IMG/VR virus record: IMGVR_UViG_2513237213_000004
Coordinates: 1-64,000 of that record
Strand: one strand, 5' to 3'
Source: a virus
Lineage: Duplodnaviria > Caudoviricetes
Length of the DNA: 64,000 bases
The notes beneath the pieces were generated by a model. The model was not told where the DNA came from. It saw only the letters and a program-made list of their open reading frames with translations, and searched no databases. The position numbers were made by a program, and so were the translations under genes. Each line of letters opens with the position of its first letter. Within the stretch, counting starts at the first letter, position 1. Positions 1,753-43,049 of the stretch are shown here, piece by piece.

Positions 1753-4700
1753 TATGCGGTCACAAGTTGCGCATCGATGATAATGCCTTTGTTGCTGCGG
1801 ATAAATTCATAAGTCAATCCTTTGGCCACTTTGATTCCCCGCTGCCAACCGCGATATCTATCATAGTATTTATCTTTGTTCCATGCCGATGCAAATACAA
1901 TGCCATCGAATTCACCGTATGGCGTATCGAATATCAGCTTGGCCATAGTTTTTCCTCGCTTATCCTGGAACTCATAGACGCTCTTGGCCACCCCCGTAAG
2001 CACCTTTGGAAGTGACGAGAAGGAAAAGGACAACACGGAAATTTCACCGGCAATCTTATCATACTTCTTTGCTGCGGACTCCTTGAAATCCACATCAGCC
2101 AACTTTGCCTGCCACTGGTCAATCATGCGTTGTGCCTTGGCCCGGCCCTTATCATCTATGGCCATGTCATATTGGTCCTGGTAATACTCAATGCGTTCCT
2201 CACAATGAGCCTTGCGCTGCAAGATTTCCTTGGTGGATTGCAGATTGGCCAGCATCCAGCCTCGGTCTTTCCCCAGGTAATCCAGTGCCCCGGCCTTGAT
2301 AAGCCCCTCGGTAATTAACTTATTATTGGCTCCGGCCACCGTATGCCAATCATTGCTCTGGACCAGCGTAAGGTTCGCCCCTACGCCTTTGATATAACAT
2401 AAGCCGACACGGATCGCATCGCCTTCCACGGCCCATTTACGGTTGCCCTTGGATAAATCCGGAGGAAGCAGCTTGATGCCCATACGCTTACATTCTTCGA
2501 TATACGGCAAGAGTTTCTTGTGGTCCGTCCGGGAATTAAGCAAAGCGCACATGTATTGGACCGGGAAATGCGTTTTGAGAAACGCGGTCTTATATGAGAG
2601 TTTAGCATAGGATACCGCGTGGCTGCGGTTGAATACATACCGGCCAGCGGCTTCAATCTGCGCTGCCACCGCCGCTGCTACCTCATGTGAATAACCGTTG
2701 GCCTCACATGCGGCAATGAAATCAGCCACGGCAGCCTTGATTTTCGTGAGCTCTTTTCGCCCAATGACTTTACGGAGGGCATCAGCTTGACCAAGGTCGT
2801 ACCCGGCCATCTTCATGGAGATAAGCATAATCTGTTCTTGGTACACCAGAACGCCATATGTTTTCCCTGCGATTTCCTTCATGGCCTCGCAAGGATATTC
2901 CACGGTAATCTTGCCGTTCTTAGCATCGACATATTGTTGAAGCATACCAGAGTCAATCGGCCCCGGACGATACAAGGCAACCAGCACGGCCAGGTCATCA
3001 AAGCGATTCGGCTTCAATTCCTGGGCAACTTTCTGCATCCCAGGGGACTCCATTTGGAATATACCCGTAGTATGGCCACCGGCGTATACCTCGTATGTAG
3101 CCTTGTCGTTCATGGGGATAGATTCAAGGGAAAGCGGAATTTTGATTGCGGAAAGGCACTCGTCGATAATATCCAACGTGCGCAGGCCCAAGATGTCCAA
3201 CTTCAAGAGGCCCATGGCTTCCAGTGTGTGATATTCAAAGGCGGCCACACGCACATACTCGCGCTTACCAGTGGACGTATCTGTGGAAGTGCAGCCTTCT
3301 ACCGGACAATATTTTTCTACGGCATCCGGAGTAACCAGGATTGCCGATGCGTGAACCCCCATCTTATCAATGCGACCAGCGAAATGCTGCGACACATCAA
3401 GGAGACGTTCACGTTCTTCCTGGCTGAAAGCACTGTTTATCGTGAGGATTTCGTCGAGGGATTCTTGCAGGTCCTTAGTTACCACGAGCACCCTTTCCCT
3501 GGTCCATCGCATACCAGTGTCCTGCTTGTCCCTTTTACGACGGTCAACCTCTGCGCGTTCTTCCTCGGTCAATGACAGATATTCTTCTTTCTCCAATGCC
3601 TGCTGCGCCCGAAGAACCGCCTGTTTACCAACATCGGGTTTGTCGGGATTTTTGGTATAGCCATACGTCGTAACCTTGTAGACTGTACCGTAATGTTCCC
3701 GGATATAATCAATGATTTTCCCTCGATTATCCGTGGATACGTCTGTATCGATATCCGCCGGGCTTTGTCTCTGTGGATTACAAAAGCGGAAAAATGCGGT
3801 ATCGTATTTGATACTATCGACTTTATGAAAGCCCATGAGGTAACCAATGAGGCACCCGGCAGCAGAACCACGGCCTTCGCCAACGGGGATATTATTCTTT
3901 ACGCACCAGTTTACCAGGTCCCAGATGATAAGCAGGTAATTGAGATAGTTGGCTTTTTTGAGGTCAACCATTTCTTTTTCAAAGCGTTCCCCGTACTCCT
4001 TGTACTTGCCTTTAGGAACCTTGGCCCGCCAATTCTCTCGGCAGATTTCCCGGATAACTTCTTCGGCATCGCGCTCTGTGTACGTCGGATAGTGCATACC
4101 GCCGAATTCAATGGTTACATTGCAGCGCTCGGCAATGGCGGAGGTATTCGCAATGGCTTCCTCTTTCACATCGTCCGGTATCCAGAGCGTTTCCCGGATT
4201 TCCTGCTCGGACCAGAGATAGTTTTCGTTATCATGGTATCCATTGCCATGAATTTGCAGCCACAAGAAATGATAGGGCTCGTCCTCGGCCTTGGCATAAT
4301 GAGCATCCGTAGTGACCACCAGAGGGACGTTGTGCTTCCTGGCCAGACCAATGACCTTATCGTTGTATTCCCATTGCCGGTCAATGTTCAATGGCTGGAT
4401 TTCAGCGTAGAACCTGTCCCCAAAGATTTCCTTGAACTTTACAAACCAATCCTCGCCGGTATCCGTATTGACGATGGAAGCCATGCACGCGGACAGACAA
4501 ATTACCCCCCCACTATGCTTTCGCAGGTCTGATTCGTCGATACGCGGTTTGTAGAACATGTGGTCCTCGCGGTAAGCGATGGAGTCCAGTTCTTTGAGGT
4601 TCCTGTACCCTTCCTCGTTCATAGCCAAGAGAACCAAATGGTGCGTGAAGGAACGGTCACGGATGCTTACGTCTGGGCAAAAGTAGAACTCGCAGCCGAT

Positions 4701-5929: not shown

Positions 5930-7090
5930 TTATGCCCTCGCTAAATCCTTCTGATTTCCCTGGATTTTCTTTAATTCTTCTTCGACACGCATACGGCCCT
6001 TGACTGTGAAATAATCACGAGTAATACCAGGAATAGCATCTTTAGTTTCCATATATCCCTCGGTAACTACCCATTTGTAAGCCTTGTAGCCATTGCCCTG
6101 CTTATAGCGCCAACCAAGAACATCGTCAACAACGTAACGCAGCAGATTTTCTTTGACATTCAATTCTTTTGCCAGGGCTCTTATTCCAATCAGATGGCCT
6201 TTTTCGATATACTTTGTCGTCTGCTCTGCCAAAGGTGTCAATTCCTTAACCTCGGCGGCCAGGGCCATGCGTTTTTCTTCCTCCTTAATCCACGCCTTTG
6301 CACGTTCAATGGGATCATCAATCATGTAGCTATCCATAGGCTTTACAACGTACTGTCCGGTCTTACGAATTTCTTTGAGAATTTCCTTGACCTTCTTCTT
6401 AAATTGCTTTGCAATGGGCTTGCGACTCTGCATGAGCACTTCATAGAGGCCATCTTCGGTAAGGAACCACATTTCACGGTTTTGACCTGATAGGAAGATT
6501 GTTCCTGTCAGCTTTTCATCTTCATCAACAGTCCTCAACATCCGCGACACATCACGGCTTACTTGCTTGGAATTAGCCCAAGCATAATCAATCCATTCAG
6601 CTACGTCCTTCGCCAAGAACAACGGCTGCTCTACTGTGCCATACATGCGGAACTGTTTACCTAATACTTCCTGTTCGTTGATAACTGCTAATTCATTTTC
6701 CATTTTCGTAACCTCCATAAAATCTTTTTGACGTCTATGTAGCTCCGGGATAACCTCGTCCTTCAAGAAGGAATCTATCGTCCGGCCATTGCAATCCCAC
6801 GATGACGGTTCCATTTGCATGATACCAGCCTCGTTGATAAGGTGTATCTGCATCGCATCGCCATGGATGTCCTCGGTCAGTTCGATGTGGTCAACCAGGC
6901 CAACCACAGGAGATATGACTTTGCCATCTTTGTCCAAAACAAATTTACAATCCGGACTCACATAGTAATCACCGGAGCCATATCCGAACATATCCATGAC
7001 GCTTTCCCGGACTAACCAGATATTGTCCTGGGTAACGATGAACCGGATATTGGAGAATGTTATAACCTTTGATTTAGTCACACTGTACAC
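5930..7090 (-). CDS. Phage antirepressor-like protein: degenerate Bro-N + Bro-N + KilAC/ANT-like C-terminus
   Basis: PLFLAKDVAEWI...FLTEDGLYEVLMQSRKPIAKQFKKKVKEILKEIRKTGQY; C-terminal LIGIRALAKEL...YFTVKG. Confidence 0.85.
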   Translation of the reverse strand: MYSVTKSKVITFSNIRFIVTQDNIWLVRESVMDMFGYGSGDYYVSPDCKFVLDKDGKVISPVVGLVDHIELTEDIHGDAMQIHLINEAGIMQMEPSSWDCNGRTIDSFLKDEVIPELHRRQKDFMEVTKMENELAVINEQEVLGKQFRMYGTVEQPLFLAKDVAEWIDYAWANSKQVSRDVSRMLRTVDEDEKLTGTIFLSGQNREMWFLTEDGLYEVLMQSRKPIAKQFKKKVKEILKEIRKTGQYVVKPMDSYMIDDPIERAKAWIKEEEKRMALAAEVKELTPLAEQTTKYIEKGHLIGIRALAKELNVKENLLRYVVDDVLGWRYKQGNGYKAYKWVVTEGYMETKDAIPGITRDYFTVKGRMRVEEELKKIQGNQKDLARA

Positions 7091-30473: not shown

Positions 30474-30545
30474 ATGGTATAATTGTATAACTGTGTACCA
30501 TTACGCCATTACACTGCTATACAATTACACCATTACAATGGTGCA
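30474..30545. repeat. Octamer tandem array 3 (candidate parS/centromere)
   Basis: tataattg tataactg tgtaccat tacgccat tacactgc tatacaat tacaccat tacaatgg. Confidence 0.8.
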
Positions 30546-34872: not shown

Positions 34873-35889
34873 TTAGCCCTGCATACGAAGTTTCGTAATC
34901 TCTTTAATTTTGTCCATGGGACTCATTGCAGATGCCTTGATTTCGGCCATCTTAGCTTCCCGGTCATCATCGCCCACCAGCGGATTGCCTGCTACATGCT
35001 GACCAGCCTTCGGAGTGGGGATTTCCTCTTTGGAACCTTTCATCGGTTCCGGCTCTTTGCCTTCCTCGCCATCTTCCGGTTCGCCCTCGCCCTTTTCCTC
35101 GGCTGCTGCCTTGATTGCGTCAACGTCGTTCTTGGCCTGCTCTGCGGCAGCCTTGACTTTATCAATAGATGCCTTGATATCGTCCAGATCCTCTTTGGAT
35201 ACCTGTGCTTCCAGAGAAGCCTTGATTTCGCCCTGGGTTTCCTCGATGCTCTTAATGCGCTGCTCCATGGATTCAGCCACAGAAGCCGCAATCTCTTTTA
35301 CCAGTGCGTCCTTTTCCTCTTTCGTCATTTCCACATCACTCCTATTTGCTTTTGCTGCTGCCAGTTTTTCAATGAACGTGTCACTGAAAGCTGCACAGTT
35401 CTGCCAAAGGATTGCACAACCACAACCCTCGAATTTGTCCATATAAATAACTTCCTCGTCCTCATGGGTGGCCGTTGCATACCATTCCAAGGAGAAACCC
35501 AGGGAACCAGCGCCATTGAGGATCATGTACGCTTCATCCGGATATTTCTCTTTCCACACAACGATTTCAGCCATGAGGTTTTCGCCTTCTGCATGAACTT
35601 CTCGGATATAACCGATGTTCACATTGCCGTGGTCCGTGAATAAATCCTCCGTATCCTCGTACCAACTCGGATATACGCAATTCAGCGGCATCCCTACAAA
35701 GGACTGTGCGCAGGCGTCCACAGACTCCTGCGTAAATGCTACGAGCTTACCACCGGCCCCACACGGCGAACCAGACGATGCCTTGCCAATCGTAGCAATG
35801 CAGCCGGTAATTACCATTTTGTGTGCTTCCGTGGACATCACAACATTAGAGAGCGATGCTTCAATCTTTGTCTTTTTCGTTGCTATCAC
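34873..35889 (-). CDS. Prohead protease / scaffold fusion
   Basis: N-terminal protease-like domain (GFSLE) and acidic Ala-rich coiled-coil scaffold-like C-terminus. Confidence 0.7.
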   Translation of the reverse strand: MIATKKTKIEASLSNVVMSTEAHKMVITGCIATIGKASSGSPCGAGGKLVAFTQESVDACAQSFVGMPLNCVYPSWYEDTEDLFTDHGNVNIGYIREVHAEGENLMAEIVVWKEKYPDEAYMILNGAGSLGFSLEWYATATHEDEEVIYMDKFEGCGCAILWQNCAAFSDTFIEKLAAAKANRSDVEMTKEEKDALVKEIAASVAESMEQRIKSIEETQGEIKASLEAQVSKEDLDDIKASIDKVKAAAEQAKNDVDAIKAAAEEKGEGEPEDGEEGKEPEPMKGSKEEIPTPKAGQHVAGNPLVGDDDREAKMAEIKASAMSPMDKIKEITKLRMQG

Positions 35890-37174
35890 CCCCTTCTGTA
35901 TTAGTAGTATCCTTTATATTTCCGTTCCCATTGAATCCACCAGCAATACCAAGGTCAACATTGATATTCGCCGTTTTCTCCGGGTAGGTCATATTGGCAT
36001 AATCAGAGGTGCTTTCCTCGTAGCCCATGATTCTGCGGACTTCGTTTTCCGTAAGCACTCCCTTGTAGTATTCATCCACCACACGCTTGGATTTTACGGA
36101 TTTCTGCATTTCAGAATCCTCGAAGATATATCGGAATTTCAGTACACCGCCAAGGCCCATGTTGGCAATCACATAGTTGTTATACAGGTCCTCCATCATC
36201 GCTGCATAGGGCTTAATGAGTTCCTGTGTCATAGCGTTTTCCTGGTCCTCACCGGTGCTCCTGTCATTTGCAATGACCAGACCAAGTTTTTCCGGTGGGA
36301 TGCCAAAGGCCACACCGACAATCTGCGTCAACTTTTCAAGCCACTGCAAATACAGGCCATCACTGTTGATTGCCTTGATCTGCTTGGTTTCCACAGACTT
36401 GGAACCGGCCACAACCGGGATACGTCCAGTGCCTTCGATATCGTTCTTCATGTATTCGATGAATTTCTCTCGTTGTTCGGAGTTGATTCCTTCACCCAGG
36501 GAAATCAAGAACTCTGCCGTAGCGTTGGTGGCCTTCTCGTTGGCCTGCTCAATGGAGTCCAGGTAAAATCTCACATACTGGTAAGCCATCATAATCGGAG
36601 ATAAGCCATAGGGCTGATATGTGAAGTAGGACCGCTGCATATAAGCAATGTCCTTGGCCGTGAAATACTTCATGCCATCTTCCTGCTGCTGCATATACCG
36701 TACTGCGTTATCGTCCGTGTAATCGTATGGAACCACCATCTGAATCGTCGAACCATCCACCGGATAAAGGTATACAGGGTGCTTCGTGGACCGCGCCTTG
36801 GCCACCTCTGCGCACATAGCGTCAAGCACCATGGCATCATCCAAAAGCCGCTTCGTGAACGAACTACGGCTATCCACAAGATTAGGATGCTCAATGCAAT
36901 TCTGTACCGCTGCAATCTCCCGGATTTTCTTTCCCCGGCCACCAATCACATCAATGGTATACGGCTGCCGGGCCAAGGAATCCTGGACAATGGTTATCGC
37001 CTTCCGCACGATTGGATCACGACTGAAATTCCGTAACTGCCTTACCGTGGGATTTTTCGGGAGCACTGACTTGCGCTTATTATCCCGTGGCATCCAACTC
37101 ATGTACATCTGGTTTGGAAGGAGCCTAGCGAGGGGACCTTTGCTTGCCAAAAACTTTTTTACGTTGTCAAACAA
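35861..37174 (-). CDS. Portal protein
   Basis: YGLSPI, AFGIPPEKLG, LTENEVRRIMGY HK97-type portal motifs. Confidence 0.92.
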   Translation of the reverse strand: MFDNVKKFLASKGPLARLLPNQMYMSWMPRDNKRKSVLPKNPTVRQLRNFSRDPIVRKAITIVQDSLARQPYTIDVIGGRGKKIREIAAVQNCIEHPNLVDSRSSFTKRLLDDAMVLDAMCAEVAKARSTKHPVYLYPVDGSTIQMVVPYDYTDDNAVRYMQQQEDGMKYFTAKDIAYMQRSYFTYQPYGLSPIMMAYQYVRFYLDSIEQANEKATNATAEFLISLGEGINSEQREKFIEYMKNDIEGTGRIPVVAGSKSVETKQIKAINSDGLYLQWLEKLTQIVGVAFGIPPEKLGLVIANDRSTGEDQENAMTQELIKPYAAMMEDLYNNYVIANMGLGGVLKFRYIFEDSEMQKSVKSKRVVDEYYKGVLTENEVRRIMGYEESTSDYANMTYPEKTANINVDLGIAGGFNGNGNIKDTTNTEGGDSNEKDKD

Positions 37175-37188
37175 TGTTTCTCACCCCC

Positions 37189-38823
37189 TCATTTAAAAAA
37201 ACCGAAGGGCGTATTTGCCATTCGGTTCCTGTTTTTATTCATATTCATTCTGCTTCCTCCGGCATCAATGCTGCCAAAGGAGAAATTTGCTACCGATGTT
37301 TCAAGCAATGGCTTCAATGCCATTTCTAAGCAATCAGGGCCGTCATCATGGCCCTTTGGATAATTCCGAAGCTGACTAAGTAATATCTTCTGCCCGGCCT
37401 TAAACTTGATATGTCCCTGCCGAACATGGGGAACCAGGCTCTCGATACGGGCAGCCTTGCTATCGCCATTGGTATGGCATACGTCAATCCAGTCAAGGTA
37501 AATCCCTGCCTGCACCAGTTCACGCTGCAAAGTCGAAGAAAAAAACAACTGCATCTGGTTCGTTTCACAGACAATCTTCGGATTATGCGGATAATACTTA
37601 GCGATTATCGCCTTTGCGTCCTCTATGATTTCCTCCGGCCTCCGCTTTTTGAGGTCAGCGTCCAATACATAGAAGTAATTGTCAGAACACCGAGCCACCG
37701 CGATAATAGCGGAAAAGTCGTTCATGCGCTTACCACCGATGGCCGGATCAATCGCAATGCAAACCTCTTTGATTTCCGGACAATCAACGTAGCGGTTATT
37801 CTCCAACCACTCTGTCTTGAACGTCCGTGTATTCTCGGTCTGTGGATCGTTTTGGAACTCGCTGGCAAACCCTTCCTCGGACGCTATCCTGCGCTCCATC
37901 AAATGCTCATACATATCTGGGCGCTGGTTCGGCCAAAGGACTTCCGTACCGGCCAGCATTTCTTCCTTGTGCTTCCGGTAGAAGGCCATAGCATCTGAAT
38001 AAGCATGGTCACCACGGGTTAAGTCCGTCATTATATTTTCCCATTCACTCCATAGCGGACTATCGGAAAACTTAATGACCGCCTGGAACGTCTTGCGCAC
38101 CCAGGAGGAATACTCCCCATCATTCAGCATATGATAAAGCAGCGCATCATATGAAAGCACTGTACCAATGTAAAAGAAGGAACACGTTGGACACCCCATA
38201 GGCATCACATCAGAATTGAACCACTGTTTTAGTGAGGCGTTCTGCGATGGACTAGCCACCTGCTCCGCCGTTTCTAAATCGTCTAGGATTACCAGATCCG
38301 GGCGCGTACTATTAAATTTCATGCCGCGCATCTGTGCTCCTGCGCCTTTCGACGTGAGAAATACTTTGTTTCTCGTGTAGATTTCGTTGGAATTCCAGAT
38401 ATCATCATTCTTCATTTCACCGAAATCATTTTTGATTCGCTCATTGAATTCCAATTCGTTACGAATATCAATGATGAATTGCTTTGCCACCGGCCCCGTC
38501 GCGGATATAATCACGATGAAGCGCTTGTAACCATAGCAAACACACCAGAGTACAAACGCGAATGAAATCAGAGTTGACTTCGCATGGCCACGCGGGGCAG
38601 CCACAACGTTCCTGGTTTCTTCATCGCTATGATTAAGGATTACATCTTCTACCTTATGGATCAGCCAAAGGTGGAATTTCTCGGACCACTCTGACTTGAA
38701 AGAATCTGCGAGATAATACTCGCAGAACCGCTTGAAATCATGGGCGCAAATGTCACGCATACTTTGGTTATCCCCTTCTCTACGAAGTGAACCACCAAAA
38801 ATCTGCCTCATTGCATTTGCCAT
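37189..38823 (-). CDS. terL: Terminase large subunit
   Basis: APRGHAKST Walker A, LVILDDLE Walker B, IAIDPA nuclease, HDDGPDC. Confidence 0.95.
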   Translation of the reverse strand: MANAMRQIFGGSLRREGDNQSMRDICAHDFKRFCEYYLADSFKSEWSEKFHLWLIHKVEDVILNHSDEETRNVVAAPRGHAKSTLISFAFVLWCVCYGYKRFIVIISATGPVAKQFIIDIRNELEFNERIKNDFGEMKNDDIWNSNEIYTRNKVFLTSKGAGAQMRGMKFNSTRPDLVILDDLETAEQVASPSQNASLKQWFNSDVMPMGCPTCSFFYIGTVLSYDALLYHMLNDGEYSSWVRKTFQAVIKFSDSPLWSEWENIMTDLTRGDHAYSDAMAFYRKHKEEMLAGTEVLWPNQRPDMYEHLMERRIASEEGFASEFQNDPQTENTRTFKTEWLENNRYVDCPEIKEVCIAIDPAIGGKRMNDFSAIIAVARCSDNYFYVLDADLKKRRPEEIIEDAKAIIAKYYPHNPKIVCETNQMQLFFSSTLQRELVQAGIYLDWIDVCHTNGDSKAARIESLVPHVRQGHIKFKAGQKILLSQLRNYPKGHDDGPDCLEMALKPLLETSVANFSFGSIDAGGSRMNMNKNRNRMANTPFGFFK

Positions 38824-38832
38824 GAAATCACC

Positions 38833-39792
38833 TTACTTTAAATGGTATTTACGGAAATGCTCTTGGATTTTCCGTAACCGAGCCTTGGTATAGCCTGGAT
38901 GCTTCGGATACCAATCTGATAATGGGATAAGCCCCTTGGCTCCGTTGCAATCAGTACAAGCCGGGACAATGTTCTCTATGAGGTCAACTCGTTCCGGGGA
39001 CACCTTGGCCATCACCGATTGAGGAACCAGGTGCTCCGGGATAAGAGCCACATGCTCTTTACCGCAATAAGCACATTTATGACCGAACTCCTTTTTAATC
39101 CGTTCCCATTCCACAGTATTACCAAAGACACCATTGAGGGACACCCACCGCCCGGTCTGACTCCGGATAATCGTTTTGGACTCAATACCAACCACGAACT
39201 CTGTCATTACCTCCATAGGCACATGCTCCAAAAGCCATTCCTTGACCGTGATATTGATTGCCGAAGAATATGGAACTGTAATTCCAAACCACTCACCAAT
39301 GGCATCATAGAAATCCCTCGGTCTGTTGCCAGGAACCGCACCGATATACCGAGACATGAGATTATCAAAGGTATAACGCGGATTTACAAAGGGCTTGACC
39401 ACTCCAGATTGCATAAGCAAATCCTTTAGGTCATCCAACTGTTTACCAACGCTATCCACGGCAATCTCATGTCGGCTATCCTGGGACACCAGCGGAAGCA
39501 CATCATGCGTTACCCACCGTTGGTATTCCTTGGCCGTTCCCTTCCGGCTGCTGAAAATCAACCGGTAAATACCAGGAAGGCTTACTGCGTTCATCTTCTG
39601 GGGGCCACCAGGCGTATCCATGGTTATCATCCTGCGTTCATCGGCATCTAACCGGGAAACCGCATCGCGACTATTATGGATATCCAGGGCCTCGCATACG
39701 TCATTTGCGACGTACCACCGCAAAGGGCCTATTTTCTGACTCCGGACATCATCAAAGATGCCAGAGCCAAACATAGATACTTCATTGTTCAT
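38833..39792 (-). CDS. Bro-N + HNH endonuclease fusion protein
   Basis: WYVANDVCEAL...YRLIFSSRK...WVTHDVLP; C-terminal CAYCG..EHLVP..ENIVPACTDCNGAKG; start revised to ATG overlapping upstream stop. Confidence 0.8.
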   Translation of the reverse strand: MNNEVSMFGSGIFDDVRSQKIGPLRWYVANDVCEALDIHNSRDAVSRLDADERRMITMDTPGGPQKMNAVSLPGIYRLIFSSRKGTAKEYQRWVTHDVLPLVSQDSRHEIAVDSVGKQLDDLKDLLMQSGVVKPFVNPRYTFDNLMSRYIGAVPGNRPRDFYDAIGEWFGITVPYSSAINITVKEWLLEHVPMEVMTEFVVGIESKTIIRSQTGRWVSLNGVFGNTVEWERIKKEFGHKCAYCGKEHVALIPEHLVPQSVMAKVSPERVDLIENIVPACTDCNGAKGLIPLSDWYPKHPGYTKARLRKIQEHFRKYHLK

Positions 39793-39917
39793 CGTGTCTT
39801 GTGATTGAAAATTTCTTTTCTCGCCCACCGCTTATCGTCCCGGTCCTTTACATGTCTGCGAAGGTCCTTGGCTTTCTTGACGTGACGCGGATGGCGCTCT
39901 TTTTCTTCCATGCTCAT
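39789..39917 (-). CDS. Highly basic 42-aa peptide (not in ORF track)
   Basis: MSMEEKERHPRHVKKAKDLRRHVKDRDDKRWARKEIFNHKTR; SD ggag; ATGA overlap with next gene. Confidence 0.55.
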   Translation of the reverse strand: MSMEEKERHPRHVKKAKDLRRHVKDRDDKRWARKEIFNHKTR

Positions 39918-39931
39918 TTTTGAGTTCTCCC

Positions 39932-40573
39932 TTACAAATTACTCGGCGCTATCTTCCGCAGCGACTCAATCAGCATTGGATTCTCACGGAACGCCTTCAT
40001 AATTTCTTCATAAGATTCATTGTCTAAACGTACTCGAAGAATATCGTTGATGATATTCATTGCTTTTTCCACGGTCTTATAGCAGTACACTTTCTCCTGG
40101 ATCGCTCCGATCTCGGAGGAAAGCGTTTGTTGCCGCAGCGTCATTTTGTCGAGCATATCAATGACCTGCTTCAAATCTGAAACCTCTACATCACCATTAC
40201 CCACTCTCCGGTCCAGTTCATCGAGCTCAACCGAGATAATGTCAACCGCGTTGTTTACGAGATTCAGCGCCTTGACCTTGGTTCCATAGACGTTTACCAC
40301 CTGTTCATCGGTGGGCGCGGTCATGTCACCGCCAAGGCCATTGTCCCTGCACCACCGAGCAATTGAGTTATGGGAAATCTTGTAGCCGTTGGGAATCAAG
40401 TTCCCATCGTTGATTTCCTTCGTGATGTCACGGTAACTCTTGCCCTTTAGTCGCTTATCGCGAACCAGTTCACACAGACCGAACTGTTCTACCAGGGAAC
40501 CCATGGCCCCGTTGGTATGCAGCCGGTCCGGGGCTTTGTTTCCCGGTGGTGGCGCAGGATGATTCCTTGCCAT
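39932..40573 (-). CDS. terS: Terminase small subunit (putative)
   Basis: N-terminal HTH (SYRDITKEIN...SHNSIARW), coiled coil, upstream of terL; SD aaggag before ATG 40573. Confidence 0.65.
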   Translation of the reverse strand: MARNHPAPPPGNKAPDRLHTNGAMGSLVEQFGLCELVRDKRLKGKSYRDITKEINDGNLIPNGYKISHNSIARWCRDNGLGGDMTAPTDEQVVNVYGTKVKALNLVNNAVDIISVELDELDRRVGNGDVEVSDLKQVIDMLDKMTLRQQTLSSEIGAIQEKVYCYKTVEKAMNIINDILRVRLDNESYEEIMKAFRENPMLIESLRKIAPSNL

Positions 40574-40603
40574 ACCAAACACTCCTTATTTTGTTTGTAT
40601 TAA

Positions 40604-40640: not shown

Positions 40641-40665
40641 TCCCCGCAGGTACTATGCCTATTCT

Positions 40666-40721
40666 TATACATTTACGCCATTACACCGTTATAACTGTAT
40701 ACCTTTACAATGGTATAATGT
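40666..40721. repeat. Octamer tandem array 4 (candidate parS/centromere)
   Basis: tatacatt tacgccat tacaccgt tataactg tatacctt tacaatgg tataatgt. Confidence 0.8.
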
Positions 40722-40734
40722 CGTATATTTTCAT

Positions 40735-40805
40735 GTGGCAGTCAAAGGAGTCGAACCTTTACCTCTGCTGGAATCGCAGTGTTCCTACCGTTAAACTATC
40801 CCGCC
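40735..40805 (-). tRNA. Degenerate tRNA-like element (resembles tRNA-Gly UCC; probably non-canonical)
   Basis: D-arm GTTT/GAAC with GG, perfect T-arm AAAGG-TTCGACT-CCTTT; acceptor stem with two mismatches, 4-bp anticodon stem, loop GATTCCA, 3' end ACA not CCA. Confidence 0.6.
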
Positions 40806-40807
40806 AT

Positions 40808-41531
40808 AAAAGGGGCCTGCGCCCCATTCCCGTTTAGGCCACGGGCAAGACCTCTGCAATCAAACCTACAACTCATTGCAGCCCTTAGTTGTCGTATAAG
40901 GTTTTTAGACCACGAGCAGAGGAACATCGAACATACCAGCTACTAGTGCGAACACCTATCTGTAATGCTCTATGAACCCTTGTTCTCTTGTGGCAAACTA
41001 GGTACGGTAGCTACACTTCTTTTTTAAGAAACCTATTGACTTTCCTGGCTCCCAGGTTATACTTTCTTGATTTCCAGGAAACGGCTTCGGGCAGACTATC
41101 CCCTGCAAAGGAGATAGATTAGACTGTCCGTAGATACTTTCCGTCATTCCGAGGTATCCGTATCCGTGGTGCTCCTGCCAACCAATGAAATCATCGGTCA
41201 GCCATAGCCTATCAGTCAATTACGCCCCAGACTGTCCCAGGTTTCCCCGGCAAGACTATGAACCCTTCCCACCACCGTTATCGTGGCAGTCAAGCGATTA
41301 ACCCTCCGCGCCCTATTTTTAACCATGGCTTTCGCTTTAGGCTTAACGAGGTCTTGCAGCGCTTTTCAACCCCTTTGGTAACTCCCCAATAGCACCGAAC
41401 AGACCAGGGAGGCCCCGCATATTCTCTGCATCAGCTATGCGACACTGGCAATTTATATACCGCAGGCAGCGGATAGGAACCAGGCAGCGAAATAACGTAT
41501 GCCACCGGGAACCCCTTCGGCTCACACCGAC
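40808..41531 (-). ncRNA. Large (~720 nt) highly structured non-coding RNA, family unassigned
   Basis: Consensus promoter upstream, terminator GGGGC-GCAG-GCCCC-UUUU, no credible ORF, >12 stems, GNRA loops, tetraloop-receptor-like motif. Confidence 0.7.
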
Positions 41532-41566
41532 AAATATATTGTACTCTTGTTAATCTATATTGTCAA
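41531..41566 (-). promoter_or_regulatory. Sigma70 promoter of large ncRNA
   Basis: TTGACA-17-TACAAT; 27/34 identical to dnaE-operon promoter. Confidence 0.85.
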
Positions 41567-41671
41567 CACTGAAATATATTGGTCATTCAATGTATAACTA
41601 TGGTTGCTTAGGTATTCTATGATAACTAAGTAACTCCTAAGTAAGTACCAAGGATAAAAGTGGTATAGGTA

Positions 41672-41704
41672 TGAGCGAAGCGAATACCAAGTGAGCGAAG
41701 CGAA
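41672..41704 (+). repeat. Direct repeat TGAGCGAAGCGAA x2 (GCGAAGC mini-hairpin)
   Basis: 13-mer at 41672-41684 and 41692-41704. Confidence 0.8.
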
Positions 41705-41761
41705 CTTCAAACCACTGGATTCAATGATATACTATGTTACCCCCCTACCCCCCGTACATAT

Positions 41762-41810
41762 ATAATATGAAAATCGACACTTTTCACAACCCTATTTTGA
41801 AAAAAAGTTT
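41762..41810 (-). promoter_or_regulatory. Candidate late promoter (copy 2) upstream of ncRNA/packaging/head operon
   Basis: Matches 20102-20150. Confidence 0.55.
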
Positions 41811-42480
41811 AAAAATTTTTTCTTGGGAGCTCCGGAGGGCCTTCGGCGGGGCTTTGGTATTTCCAGAAGCACCCAAGTGATGCTCTGGTATTCTATGTAT
41901 ATACCTATGGAGAAATATGGAGAAAATTTTTCTCTGGTTGGCCTTTAGATCCACAAATGCTCTCTGGTCAGATTCTTTGCACCCCTGGTATCGCCTTCGC
42001 GGGCCTTAGTATGCCTGGTCCTTTATGCTTTTTGTCTGGTCAGCTATGGTTTTCTATGTATCACTCCTATGAACCCTTATGGGACAAGGCTTCACACTGG
42101 TTTTCTATGGTAACCTATGTATATTTCTTCTGTATCACACCCCAGGAAGCCTTATGTAGCAAGGGCTGACGCTGGTTTTGCTATGAAAAAATTTGGAAAT
42201 GGCGTCGTTACGAACTTGGGACTATGCCCGCGCCCGGAACCCCAGAAAAATCGGCATTGGAAGCCCTTTTCGCACCCCGGCCCCATTGCCAGGACAAGGC
42301 AGCCCCATTTTTCCCAGGAAGGGCCCCGCCGGAACAAACGCCAAACACGCGGCGACGCTGAAAAGCCGGGACCCCCCCGCCACACAAGGCCCCGCGCCTA
42401 TTCCCTGCTATGTGACTTTATATGTATATAGTCACATTTTATAGGGTAAAACGTCCATTTTTTCCGGGAAAAGGCCCGGA

Positions 42481-42590
42481 AAAGGCCATACAAACCCCAT
42501 AGAGGCCATTTAAGCCCTTGCCTATGTAATTATACCTATCAACACATAGAAGGCCCTTGCAGGCCCCATAAGGCCGTATAAATCCGTGGT
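42481..42590 (-). repeat. Dispersed quasi-palindromic element copy D (divergent)
   Basis: Core cctatgtaattatac 42521-42535 with ccccatag/ggccc arms. Confidence 0.45.
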
Positions 42591-42838
42591 ATGGTATTTT
42601 GCTATTGTTCCCTATTCCCTGCATAATTCTGCGTATATTCTGCGTATAATCCTAGCGCCTCCCAGCCATCCCAGGACAAAAGAGGCCCTTGTATGATCTC
42701 CCATCCTGCCATACTATGTATAACTTTGTTTTTTCTTTTATATTGAAGGTTTTTGTATATGACTATACTATGTATTAATTTTTTTTAACACTGTAAGCCC
42801 GCGCCACGCAAGGGCCCGCGCTGCACACATGATAATAA

Positions 42839-42895
42839 AAGTGACTTTTTGAAAAAATAGTGCTTGACTTTGTACCCATACAAGCGTAATATAAT
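42839..42895 (+). promoter_or_regulatory. Early promoter with 28-bp upstream element shared with recombinase promoter
   Basis: aagtgactttttgaaaaaatagtgcTTGACT-17-TAATAT. Confidence 0.75.
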
Positions 42896-43049
42896 AACTG
42901 TCAGAGGGACAACAACAAAACACCGATAGCGCCGGGACTTATCGCCGTAACTGTAAAAGGGGAGGGATTAAAGCCGGGGCAGGCAAAGTAGGGTTGACCA
43001 ATGACAAGCCGATATTAACAGTGTAGAACAATGGAGAGAGGTTATCGCA

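Follow-up and report, generated by a model that had tools for sequence, protein, structure and literature searches.

Large, intricately folded RNAs are rare in bacteria and phages, and most of them (ROOL, GOLLD, GEBRO, raiA) lack a known function. ROOL is a large ornate RNA that was first seen in the cow rumen; phages, prophages and a megaplasmid carry it, frequently in the vicinity of tRNA genes (PMC5737381, PMC5643018, PMC12286853). In L. salivarius the megaplasmid-borne version reaches very high abundance, and deleting it reduced the copy number of the megaplasmid (PMC5643018). GOLLD comprises two domains joined by a variable linker, in which tRNAs are sometimes present (PMC12286853). GEBRO is a plasmid-associated motif lying between the origins of pUA140, ARRPOF is found in a 1-kb gene-free region sufficient for replication, and both have been proposed, together with PAGEV, to act in plasmid replication; a function as single-stranded DNA (ssDNA) has also been raised for such plasmid motifs by Weinberg et al. 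(PMC5737381). Here, we describe an RNA, hereinafter RNA A, encoded on the minus strand of a 64,000-nucleotide (nt) stretch of a Caudoviricetes genome (IMG/VR record IMGVR_UViG_2513237213_000004; the window), which corresponds to positions 1-64,000 of the 73,380-bp circular phage-plasmid C4 of assembly G000. RNA A is a conserved minus-strand non-coding structure with a dedicated promoter; it belongs to a family outside Rfam, has a paralog (RNA B) on the same replicon, and its relatives recur beside replication origins and partition genes. We therefore favor, with moderate confidence, the view that these large RNAs form a new family associated with origins and partition, which most likely serves replicon maintenance, and this confidence is kept from being higher because the function is inferred.

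We retrieved relatives of the locus through the terS-like and terL proteins in IMG/VR, along with 40 terS homologs and the contigs encoding them (many from bovine rumen samples), and compared the RNA region across them by BLAST and nhmmer. By these comparisons the region is predicted to be made up of three elements stacked on the minus strand, namely RNA A (41026..41531, ~505 nt), supported by homologs, covariation and the lack of codon periodicity, a second structured element of ~205 nt (40806..41014, beginning GUAGCUACCGU), supported by relatives and covariation, and a tRNA-like cloverleaf with acceptor, D and T arms (40736..40805). An earlier sequence-only reading had treated positions 40808-41531 as one ornate ~720-nt RNA; its structured and non-coding character stands, whereas the single unit is rejected, as relatives split the stretch into the ~505-nt, ~205-nt and tRNA-like elements. 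RNA A homologs were recovered in the loci L041, L061, L006, L042 and L068, and the ~205-nt element in L005, L039, L061-L066, L041 and L006, with its 3′ hairpin and the tRNA-like part spreading more widely than the rest. L005 and L039 carry the ~205-nt element and keep terS while lacking RNA A. In L006, L041 and L061, genes separate the two elements: a pair of small hydrophobic open reading frames (ORFs) in L006 (about 3430-3860), and a Mom gene in L041 (3658-4359) and L061 (1712-2479). In L042, RNA A is followed by a methyltransferase gene (slot at 4005-4655) and two odd tRNA-like sequences, and in L068 directly by tRNA-Gln and tRNA-Glu. The space between RNA A and the ~205-nt element thus appears as a variable cargo slot for Mom, N6/N4 methyltransferases or small hydrophobic ORFs (also at about 4560-5040 in L005), which is empty in the window.

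The transcription signals follow the same division. The sigma-70 consensus promoter that the sequence-only reading had placed upstream (TTGACA-17-TACAAT; 41538..41566, minus strand) was recovered with 11/12 consensus matches, and a TTGACA with a TATAAT-like −10 box lies at the same aligned position in all six RNA A copies (window, L041, L061, L006, L042 and L068). At its 3′ end, RNA A has the conserved tail AAAGUCAAU followed by a weak terminator (AACCU...AGGUU-UCUU); a U-run of 6-8 ends it in four of the five close homologs (L041, L061, L006 and L042). The terminator previously proposed at 40825..40808 (minus strand) is also present, as a weak 5-bp G+C hairpin, GGGGCGCAGGCCCC, with UUUUAU, and closes the ~205-nt element. 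RNA A is thus probably a transcription unit of its own of ~505 nt, and would be expected from these signals to accumulate as a discrete species of that length. A near copy of the 47-nt stretch holding its promoter (41533-41578) occurs at C4:66126-66171 with 85% identity, just downstream of the primase-helicase gene, suggesting that RNA A might be co-regulated with that gene block. The RNA A tail may also form a conserved antisense promoter on the other strand (TTGACT): judged by eye, it fits the consensus in the window, in L041 and in L006, and decays in L061, L042 and L068.

RNA A is almost certainly a genuine structured RNA family. Thermodynamic folding alone is weak evidence for this (z=−1.73 for the minus strand and −0.37 for the plus strand); the comparative data are more telling. 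The covariation check among homologues that the sequence-only reading had called for came out in favor of structure: in an alignment of six sequences, RNAalifold predicted 117 pairs, in which 91.8% of the cells pair, against 35-45% with the partners slid and 83.3% in shuffled alignments, while 43 pairs had changed on both sides, against 9-11 slid and 20.8 ± 2.9 shuffled. The observed values of both measures were reached by none of 500 shuffles. We also built a covariance model, R1, from the 130-position 5′ core of RNA A (41331..41463, minus strand; 126 bits on the window), which contains CGGUAUAUAAA, two covarying hairpins, the GGGGUU/GACCUC helix and GCCUAA. When 18 sequences were aligned to R1, 92% of the cells paired, against 37-45% slid, and the covariation score was 0.597, against 0.187 ± 0.019 shuffled. 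One helix in this alignment has both sides changed in all nine of its pairs, and the GGGGUU/GACCUC helix, invariant elsewhere, shows compensating changes in distant members. G-U pairs are frequent on the minus strand, in keeping with its being the RNA strand; the plus strand was rejected as the functional strand on its z of −0.37 together with the abundance of minus-strand G-U pairs. Consistent with the earlier reading of no credible ORF, the longest sense ORF in the RNA A region spans 60 amino acids (aa). Substitutions relative to five homologs show no codon periodicity (e.g., 45/48/48 over the three phases, against 29/15/102 for the terS-like gene as control), and indels are mostly of 1, 2 or 4 nt, with most not multiples of three. 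As the substitutions are even over the three phases and the indels are out of frame, RNA A is not a protein gene; a decayed gene is likewise ruled out by the lack of third-position substitution bias and of a conserved ORF.

The individual helices called from the sequence alone fared unevenly. The GUGA-capped, GAAA-capped and 9-bp stems are present and covarying: the 5′ GUGA-capped hairpin covaries in four of its five pairs, and the 9-bp stem (41117-41096) corresponds to helices 19 and 20 of the six-sequence structure. At the 11-bp stem (41202-41177) a hairpin is kept in relatives, with variable length and sequence; they have shorter hairpins of other sequence there. The proposed long-range pairs were not upheld, as the comparative data support others; that between 41041-48 and 41074-81 is kept weakly in close relatives and competes with a better conserved long-range helix, in which GGGCGCGG pairs with CCGUUUCC in an alignment of 13 sequences. 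Also conserved in this alignment are two 5′-core hairpins, in which a position can show as many as six pair types, the GGGGUU/GACCUC helix, the GAAA-loop hairpin, the 3′ hairpin and the tail AAAGUCAAG. The GUCAAG tail might form a pseudoknot with an internal CUUGAC: the two are complementary in the window and in L041, with one compensating change, and the complementarity is missing from L042 and the distant group.

Two elements of the structure could take part in a tertiary contact. The first is a hairpin with a GAAA tetraloop (41237..41250, minus strand; alignment columns 379-392) in a three-way junction, whose loop is invariant in the 13 sequences and whose stem covaries with 3-4 pair types. 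The second (41323..41341, minus strand) reads CCUAAAGC-GAAA-GCCAUGG and resembles the 11-nt GAAA-tetraloop receptor, as noted before from the sequence. All 13 aligned sequences share its CCUAA and GG; the window carries a variant, CCUAAAG...CCAUGG, and L061, L042, L068 and L081 have exactly CCUAAG...UAUGG, which we take to be the canonical 11-nt receptor. Its inner stem covaries (GC/UA, CG/GC), and the hairpin between its halves varies in length and loop. Hence, the resemblance to the receptor stood the comparison, while the GAAA within the motif is not the conserved tetraloop, because the hairpin in which it lies varies and the conserved one is at 41250-41237. The receptor-like motif could dock that tetraloop within one molecule or between molecules.

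To delineate the family, we used a degenerate pattern derived from the invariant blocks AGGGGTT...AGACCTC...WGCCTAA for searches of IMG/VR, which recovered ten more loci (L073-L082). Six of the ten align to RNA A with nhmmer, four of them over most of its length, and at the gathering score Rfam reports no family in any of the ten. Other searches returned little: BLAST of the region found no match in a phage collection, a plasmid collection, 60 relatives and 400 genomes of the class; exact 18- to 24-mers recovered only two already-known relatives in IMG/VR; and an 18-mer scan of metagenome and genome collections gave chance matches only. Among 150 genomes of the same family, R1 recovered copies in G173:C2 (54 bits) and G372:C20 (43 bits) as well as two weak matches; searches of further families in the class and of sampled genomes from the phylum gave no match. 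Beyond the end of the window, C4 itself carries a diverged second copy, RNA B (C4:72345-73013, minus strand). The core of RNA B (C4:72717-72848, minus strand), which was outside the training set, scores 33.4 bits with R1 over the full model length (E-value about 10–6). By eye, RNA B has the blocks of the family in the same order, namely GGCGGUAUAUAAAUUGG, CGGGG with a hairpin, GCGGGGGC, GAGGGGCGUGG, CGGAAACCUC, CCCGUUUCCUU and the tail AAAGUCAAUAAG; a hairpin followed by U6 lies within it at about 72700-72672. RNA A thus belongs to a family without an Rfam entry, whose carriers are phage-plasmids, plasmid-like replicons and small phage-like elements. Two of the records, L078 (31.0 kb) and L076 (12.5 kb), are rated complete and bear direct terminal repeats. 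Genes for IS605-type OrfB/TnpB-like transposases were seen 1-3 kb from the RNA on unrelated replicons (L075 1019-2173 and L103 2680-3798); they are probably coincidental insertions.

The contexts of these copies bear on function. C4 begins with a ParA-like gene (C4:1-780) and encodes a primase-helicase, a ribonucleotide reductase, an ImmA-like peptidase and a full head, tail and packaging set; given the parA start, the replication genes and the full phage gene set, it is therefore a phage-plasmid. The assembly as a whole looks finished, with a 3.0-Mb chromosome and nine apparently circular replicons, and each of its small contigs C2-C9 starts with a ParA-like or Rep3 gene. RNA B occupies the last ORF-less kb before parA, reading away from it, and two inverted DnaA-box-like sequences, TTATCCACA, read directly from the sequence, surround the promoter upstream of it (about 73170-73110). 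The copy in G372 is divergent from a ParA gene; that in G173, on a 46-kb second replicon, lies by five CTACTAAA repeats and three AGTTTAT repeats; those in L075 and L078 lie just 3′ of a ParA-like gene and a small ORF; and in L042 the RNA comes after a Rep3 gene, six 22-nt iterons spaced 21-33 nt apart and an AT-rich tract. In the window, the ORF-poor stretch upstream of the RNA A promoter (41590..43049) bears strand-biased GGTWTTCTATG-like repeats: its 1.46 kb hold 16 CTATG on the plus strand against 2 CATAG, where the window background is 1.2 and 1.9 per kb. This stretch, between divergent gene blocks, is a candidate origin or regulator-binding array. The minimum of the cumulative GC skew falls near 42750. 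Since RNA B, the G372, G173, L075, L078 and L042 copies and RNA A itself all have such settings, the association with replication or partition recurs in independent replicons. The link to the packaging operon that the sequence-only reading had drawn does not extend to the family: adjacency to terS is limited to the RNA A lineage, and members elsewhere adjoin parA/parB, Rep3 with iterons, or DnaA boxes, not terminase genes.

We accordingly consider how such an RNA might act. RNA A would be made from its constitutive consensus promoter, would act in trans as a folded RNA particle and not as a leader of the packaging genes, and would serve the extrachromosomal replicon through origin function, copy-number control or partition. 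Taken by itself, the proposition that the role is in maintenance or replication is plausible but falls short of probable. More tentatively, a hitherto unnoticed class of ornate RNAs associated with origins or partition could be a working part of phage-plasmid replication or segregation, with one paralog for the parA module and the other for the repeat array ahead of the late genes, perhaps docking on itself or self-assembling through the GAAA tetraloop and its receptor; if so, it would suggest what ROOL and GEBRO do. Several points weigh against the maintenance reading and the evidence under it. The consensus structures were taken from the same alignments used for the pair counts, and the 18-sequence alignment was fitted to the R1 structure, so that both sets of counts are somewhat inflated; the long-range helices are not the same across the 5-, 6- and 13-sequence alignments. 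With a terminator of just UUCUU after RNA A, read-through into the ~205-nt element is plausible in the window phage, where RNA A, the ~205-nt element and the tRNA-like element may form one primary transcript. Proximity to origins and partition genes is correlative, and accessory genes often gather in such regions. As C4 has a primase-helicase and L042 a Rep3 protein, the RNA is not needed as a stand-in for an initiator. Finally, anti-restriction cargo and tRNA genes are also found next to RNA A copies, a setting just as compatible with a ROOL/GOLLD-like role.

That role is the main rival. It holds that RNA A is a particle engaged with tRNAs or translation during phage growth, which sequesters or shields tRNAs or ribosomes, or decoys host defences, and perhaps self-assembles. 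The setting matches in its phage location, tRNA islands, length of 500-650 nt and the rumen origin of the relatives (PMC5737381; PMC12286853), and RNA A shares with ROOL and GOLLD as a kind a large conserved structure, a phage or plasmid location and nearby tRNA genes. The tRNA-adjacent context seen from the sequence alone is indeed present in the window as the tRNA-like element and is stronger in relatives, where true genes for tRNA-Gln, Glu, Tyr, Met and Arg lie at this site. The cloverleaf itself scores 36.3 bits with the Rfam tRNA model (RF00005; gathering score 29), and ARAGORN calls no tRNA in it. It has a GAUUCCA loop at the anticodon position (with A33 and C37, where a canonical 7-nt anticodon loop has U33 and a purine at 37), so that it apparently lacks a usable anticodon loop; it encodes no CCA and has two mismatched acceptor pairs. 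Among relatives, its acceptor and T stems covary and the acceptor, D and T arms are retained, while the arm at the anticodon position ranges from a tetraloop to a 7-nt loop with variable arm length; together, the ~205-nt element and the cloverleaf have 22 of 69 predicted pairs changed on both sides in six sequences, against 1-8 slid. The cloverleaf is possibly a processing signal for RNase P or a decoy. Relatives also have tRNA-like sequences with 8-nt or 6-nt anticodon loops, which ARAGORN reads as 4-base or 2-base anticodons, all upstream of terS (L042 3876-3946 and 4789-4857; L044 4421-4495; L046 4310-4384; L068 1343-1415) and adjoining normal tRNA-Tyr, Met, Arg, Gln and Glu genes. The recurrence of these odd forms at the site counts for the ROOL/GOLLD-like role, as do the anti-restriction genes (Mom, methyltransferases) in the slot between the elements and the resemblance of GOLLD, with its two domains and tRNA-holding linker, to the series of RNA A, cargo or tRNAs, ~205-nt element and tRNA-like element. 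Yet, the ROOL and GOLLD models have no match here, the RNA B, G173, G372, L075 and L078 copies have par or ori neighbours and no tRNA neighbours, and oligomerization would be conjecture in this case. We consider this role unlikely on balance, though it may be compatible with one in maintenance.

The neighborhood downstream of the RNA brings in a further alternative. On the minus strand, the tRNA-like element is followed by a terS-like gene (39932..40582; 40 homologs), the first of the packaging and head operon and outside the RNA, and then by a Bro-N/HNH endonuclease gene (38833-39828), terL (37189-38823) and, on the same strand, the portal gene (35861-37174). Nearly all relatives keep the Bro-N/HNH gene at this position, accompanied by a 42-aa ORF. 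No ORF of at least 105 aa lies between 40583 and 43049. Between the tRNA-like element and the terS-like gene is a repeated box, TATACCATTGTAAAGGTATAC...GGTGTAATGG (40665..40725, minus strand), with copies elsewhere; such boxes of 40-60 nt (TATACC...GTAATGG) recur at C4:73246-73309, 1274-1313 and 30501-30542, near parA and within the tail region, and stand at matching positions in relatives too. The box at 40665..40725 probably serves the late operon as a promoter or regulator site specific to the phage. RNA A could in principle be a cis-acting leader of this operon, controlling read-through into terS by antitermination or attenuation, with the tRNA-like element as an RNase P site. In favor are its same-strand position ahead of terS, two terminator-like hairpins arranged in series, and the weakness of the window's terminator after RNA A. 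Phage regulatory RNAs are known to be processed by RNase P, as in the P1/P7 C4 and P4 CI RNAs. However, strong U-rich terminators and unrelated genes (Mom, methyltransferase) intervene between RNA A and terS in relatives, L005 and L039 keep terS without RNA A, members elsewhere precede unrelated genes or point away from their neighbours, and the repeated promoter-like boxes stand between the tRNA-like element and terS; we hence consider a leader role very unlikely. Least credible of all is a purely DNA-level element, such as an ssDNA or protein-binding site of an origin or a pac/cos region. Repeat arrays do adjoin the element, it precedes terS, a setting in which pac or cos sites are often found, and an ssDNA function was suggested as possible for plasmid motifs including GEBRO (PMC5737381). 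In six lineages, however, the element is framed by a consensus promoter, set at a constant distance, and a terminator; the GAAA tetraloop and receptor-like motif are RNA tertiary motifs; and the pairing is specific to one strand, with many G-U pairs turning into A-C on the opposite one. Both the leader and the DNA-level readings fit poorly because of the terminators, the intervening genes, the relatives without RNA A and the strand-specific G-U pairing.

For the role in replicon maintenance that we favor, the locus offers a genetically tractable family, with two paralogs on one small replicon, a cultured host, clear promoters and boundaries, recognizable neighbours and a pair of tertiary motifs. 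Were this role to hold, it would provide a function for a whole kind of large plasmid and phage RNAs, and would explain the effect of ROOL on megaplasmid copy number; were it not, RNA A would still be a good target for cryo-electron microscopy and a candidate for an Rfam entry.

Comparisons with known RNA families place RNA A as follows. At gathering thresholds, Rfam reported no family besides tRNA on the window, and none in 17 related loci; there was no match to ROOL, GOLLD, OLE, RNase P, tmRNA or introns, and with the strong covariation this bears out the suggestion that a large structured RNA lies here outside GOLLD, ROOL, OLE, RNase P, tmRNA and the group I/II introns. The matches to throat-1 (RF03110) were rejected as being at the level of noise, with 18.3 bits on the window and 20.4 bits on L041 against a threshold of 124.4 and most of the model deleted. 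GOLLD (RF01998) had no match on the window or related loci, and ARRPOF and PAGEV had none on the window. ROOL (RF03087, threshold 99.1 bits) had none even at an E-value ≤10 in the window, its genome, two other host genomes and two viral records; as 14 control genomes gave none either, this denotes the lack of a model match and not proof of absence. GEBRO (RF02988) also had none at an E-value ≤10 in the window or its genome; it did match the distant member L073 locally (5983-6073 against model positions 248-338; 37 bits, E-value 9 × 10–7 to 10–10; gathering score 284.7). The match covers roughly 90 nt and corresponds to a three-way junction that includes one hairpin capped by GAAA and another with a GGGCGUG loop; in the 13-sequence alignment, the counterpart of this junction in the RNA A of the window is at about 41270-41180. 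The earlier proposal of a new class without known relation thus holds as regards Rfam membership and gives way as regards relation, L073 sharing this ~90-nt sub-domain with GEBRO. As 37 bits is far below 284.7 and the genome of the window has no match, RNA A is not a member of GEBRO; the two likely share a distant common origin of this sub-domain, as judged from the local match.

Set against the described systems one by one, RNA A resembles ROOL in size, phage or plasmid location and tRNA neighbours, and differs from it in that its conserved sequence blocks are not those of ROOL and no model match was found. Like GOLLD, it is phage-borne beside tRNA genes, and the two-part layout of GOLLD recalls that of RNA A, the cargo or tRNAs and the ~205-nt element; unlike GOLLD, it is smaller, and the two parts have separate promoters and terminators in several relatives, and each can be found alone. 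ARRPOF, PAGEV and the ColE1 RNA II are likewise structured RNAs, or motifs resembling them, located where ORFs are lacking, at a plasmid origin or close to one, and RNA B lies in a comparable ORF-less 1 kb beside parA; the RNA-DNA hybrid and the antisense partner are features of ColE1, and the sequence here gives no evidence of either. GEBRO, the sole Rfam family with a significant partial match, is also plasmid-associated and near replication origins (PMC5737381). It is about 350 nt long, whereas the RNA here is 150-300 nt longer, and the 5′ core and 3′ domain of RNA A (AUACGGAUACCUC, AGCCGUUUCCU and the GUCAAG tail) lie outside the part that aligns to the GEBRO model.

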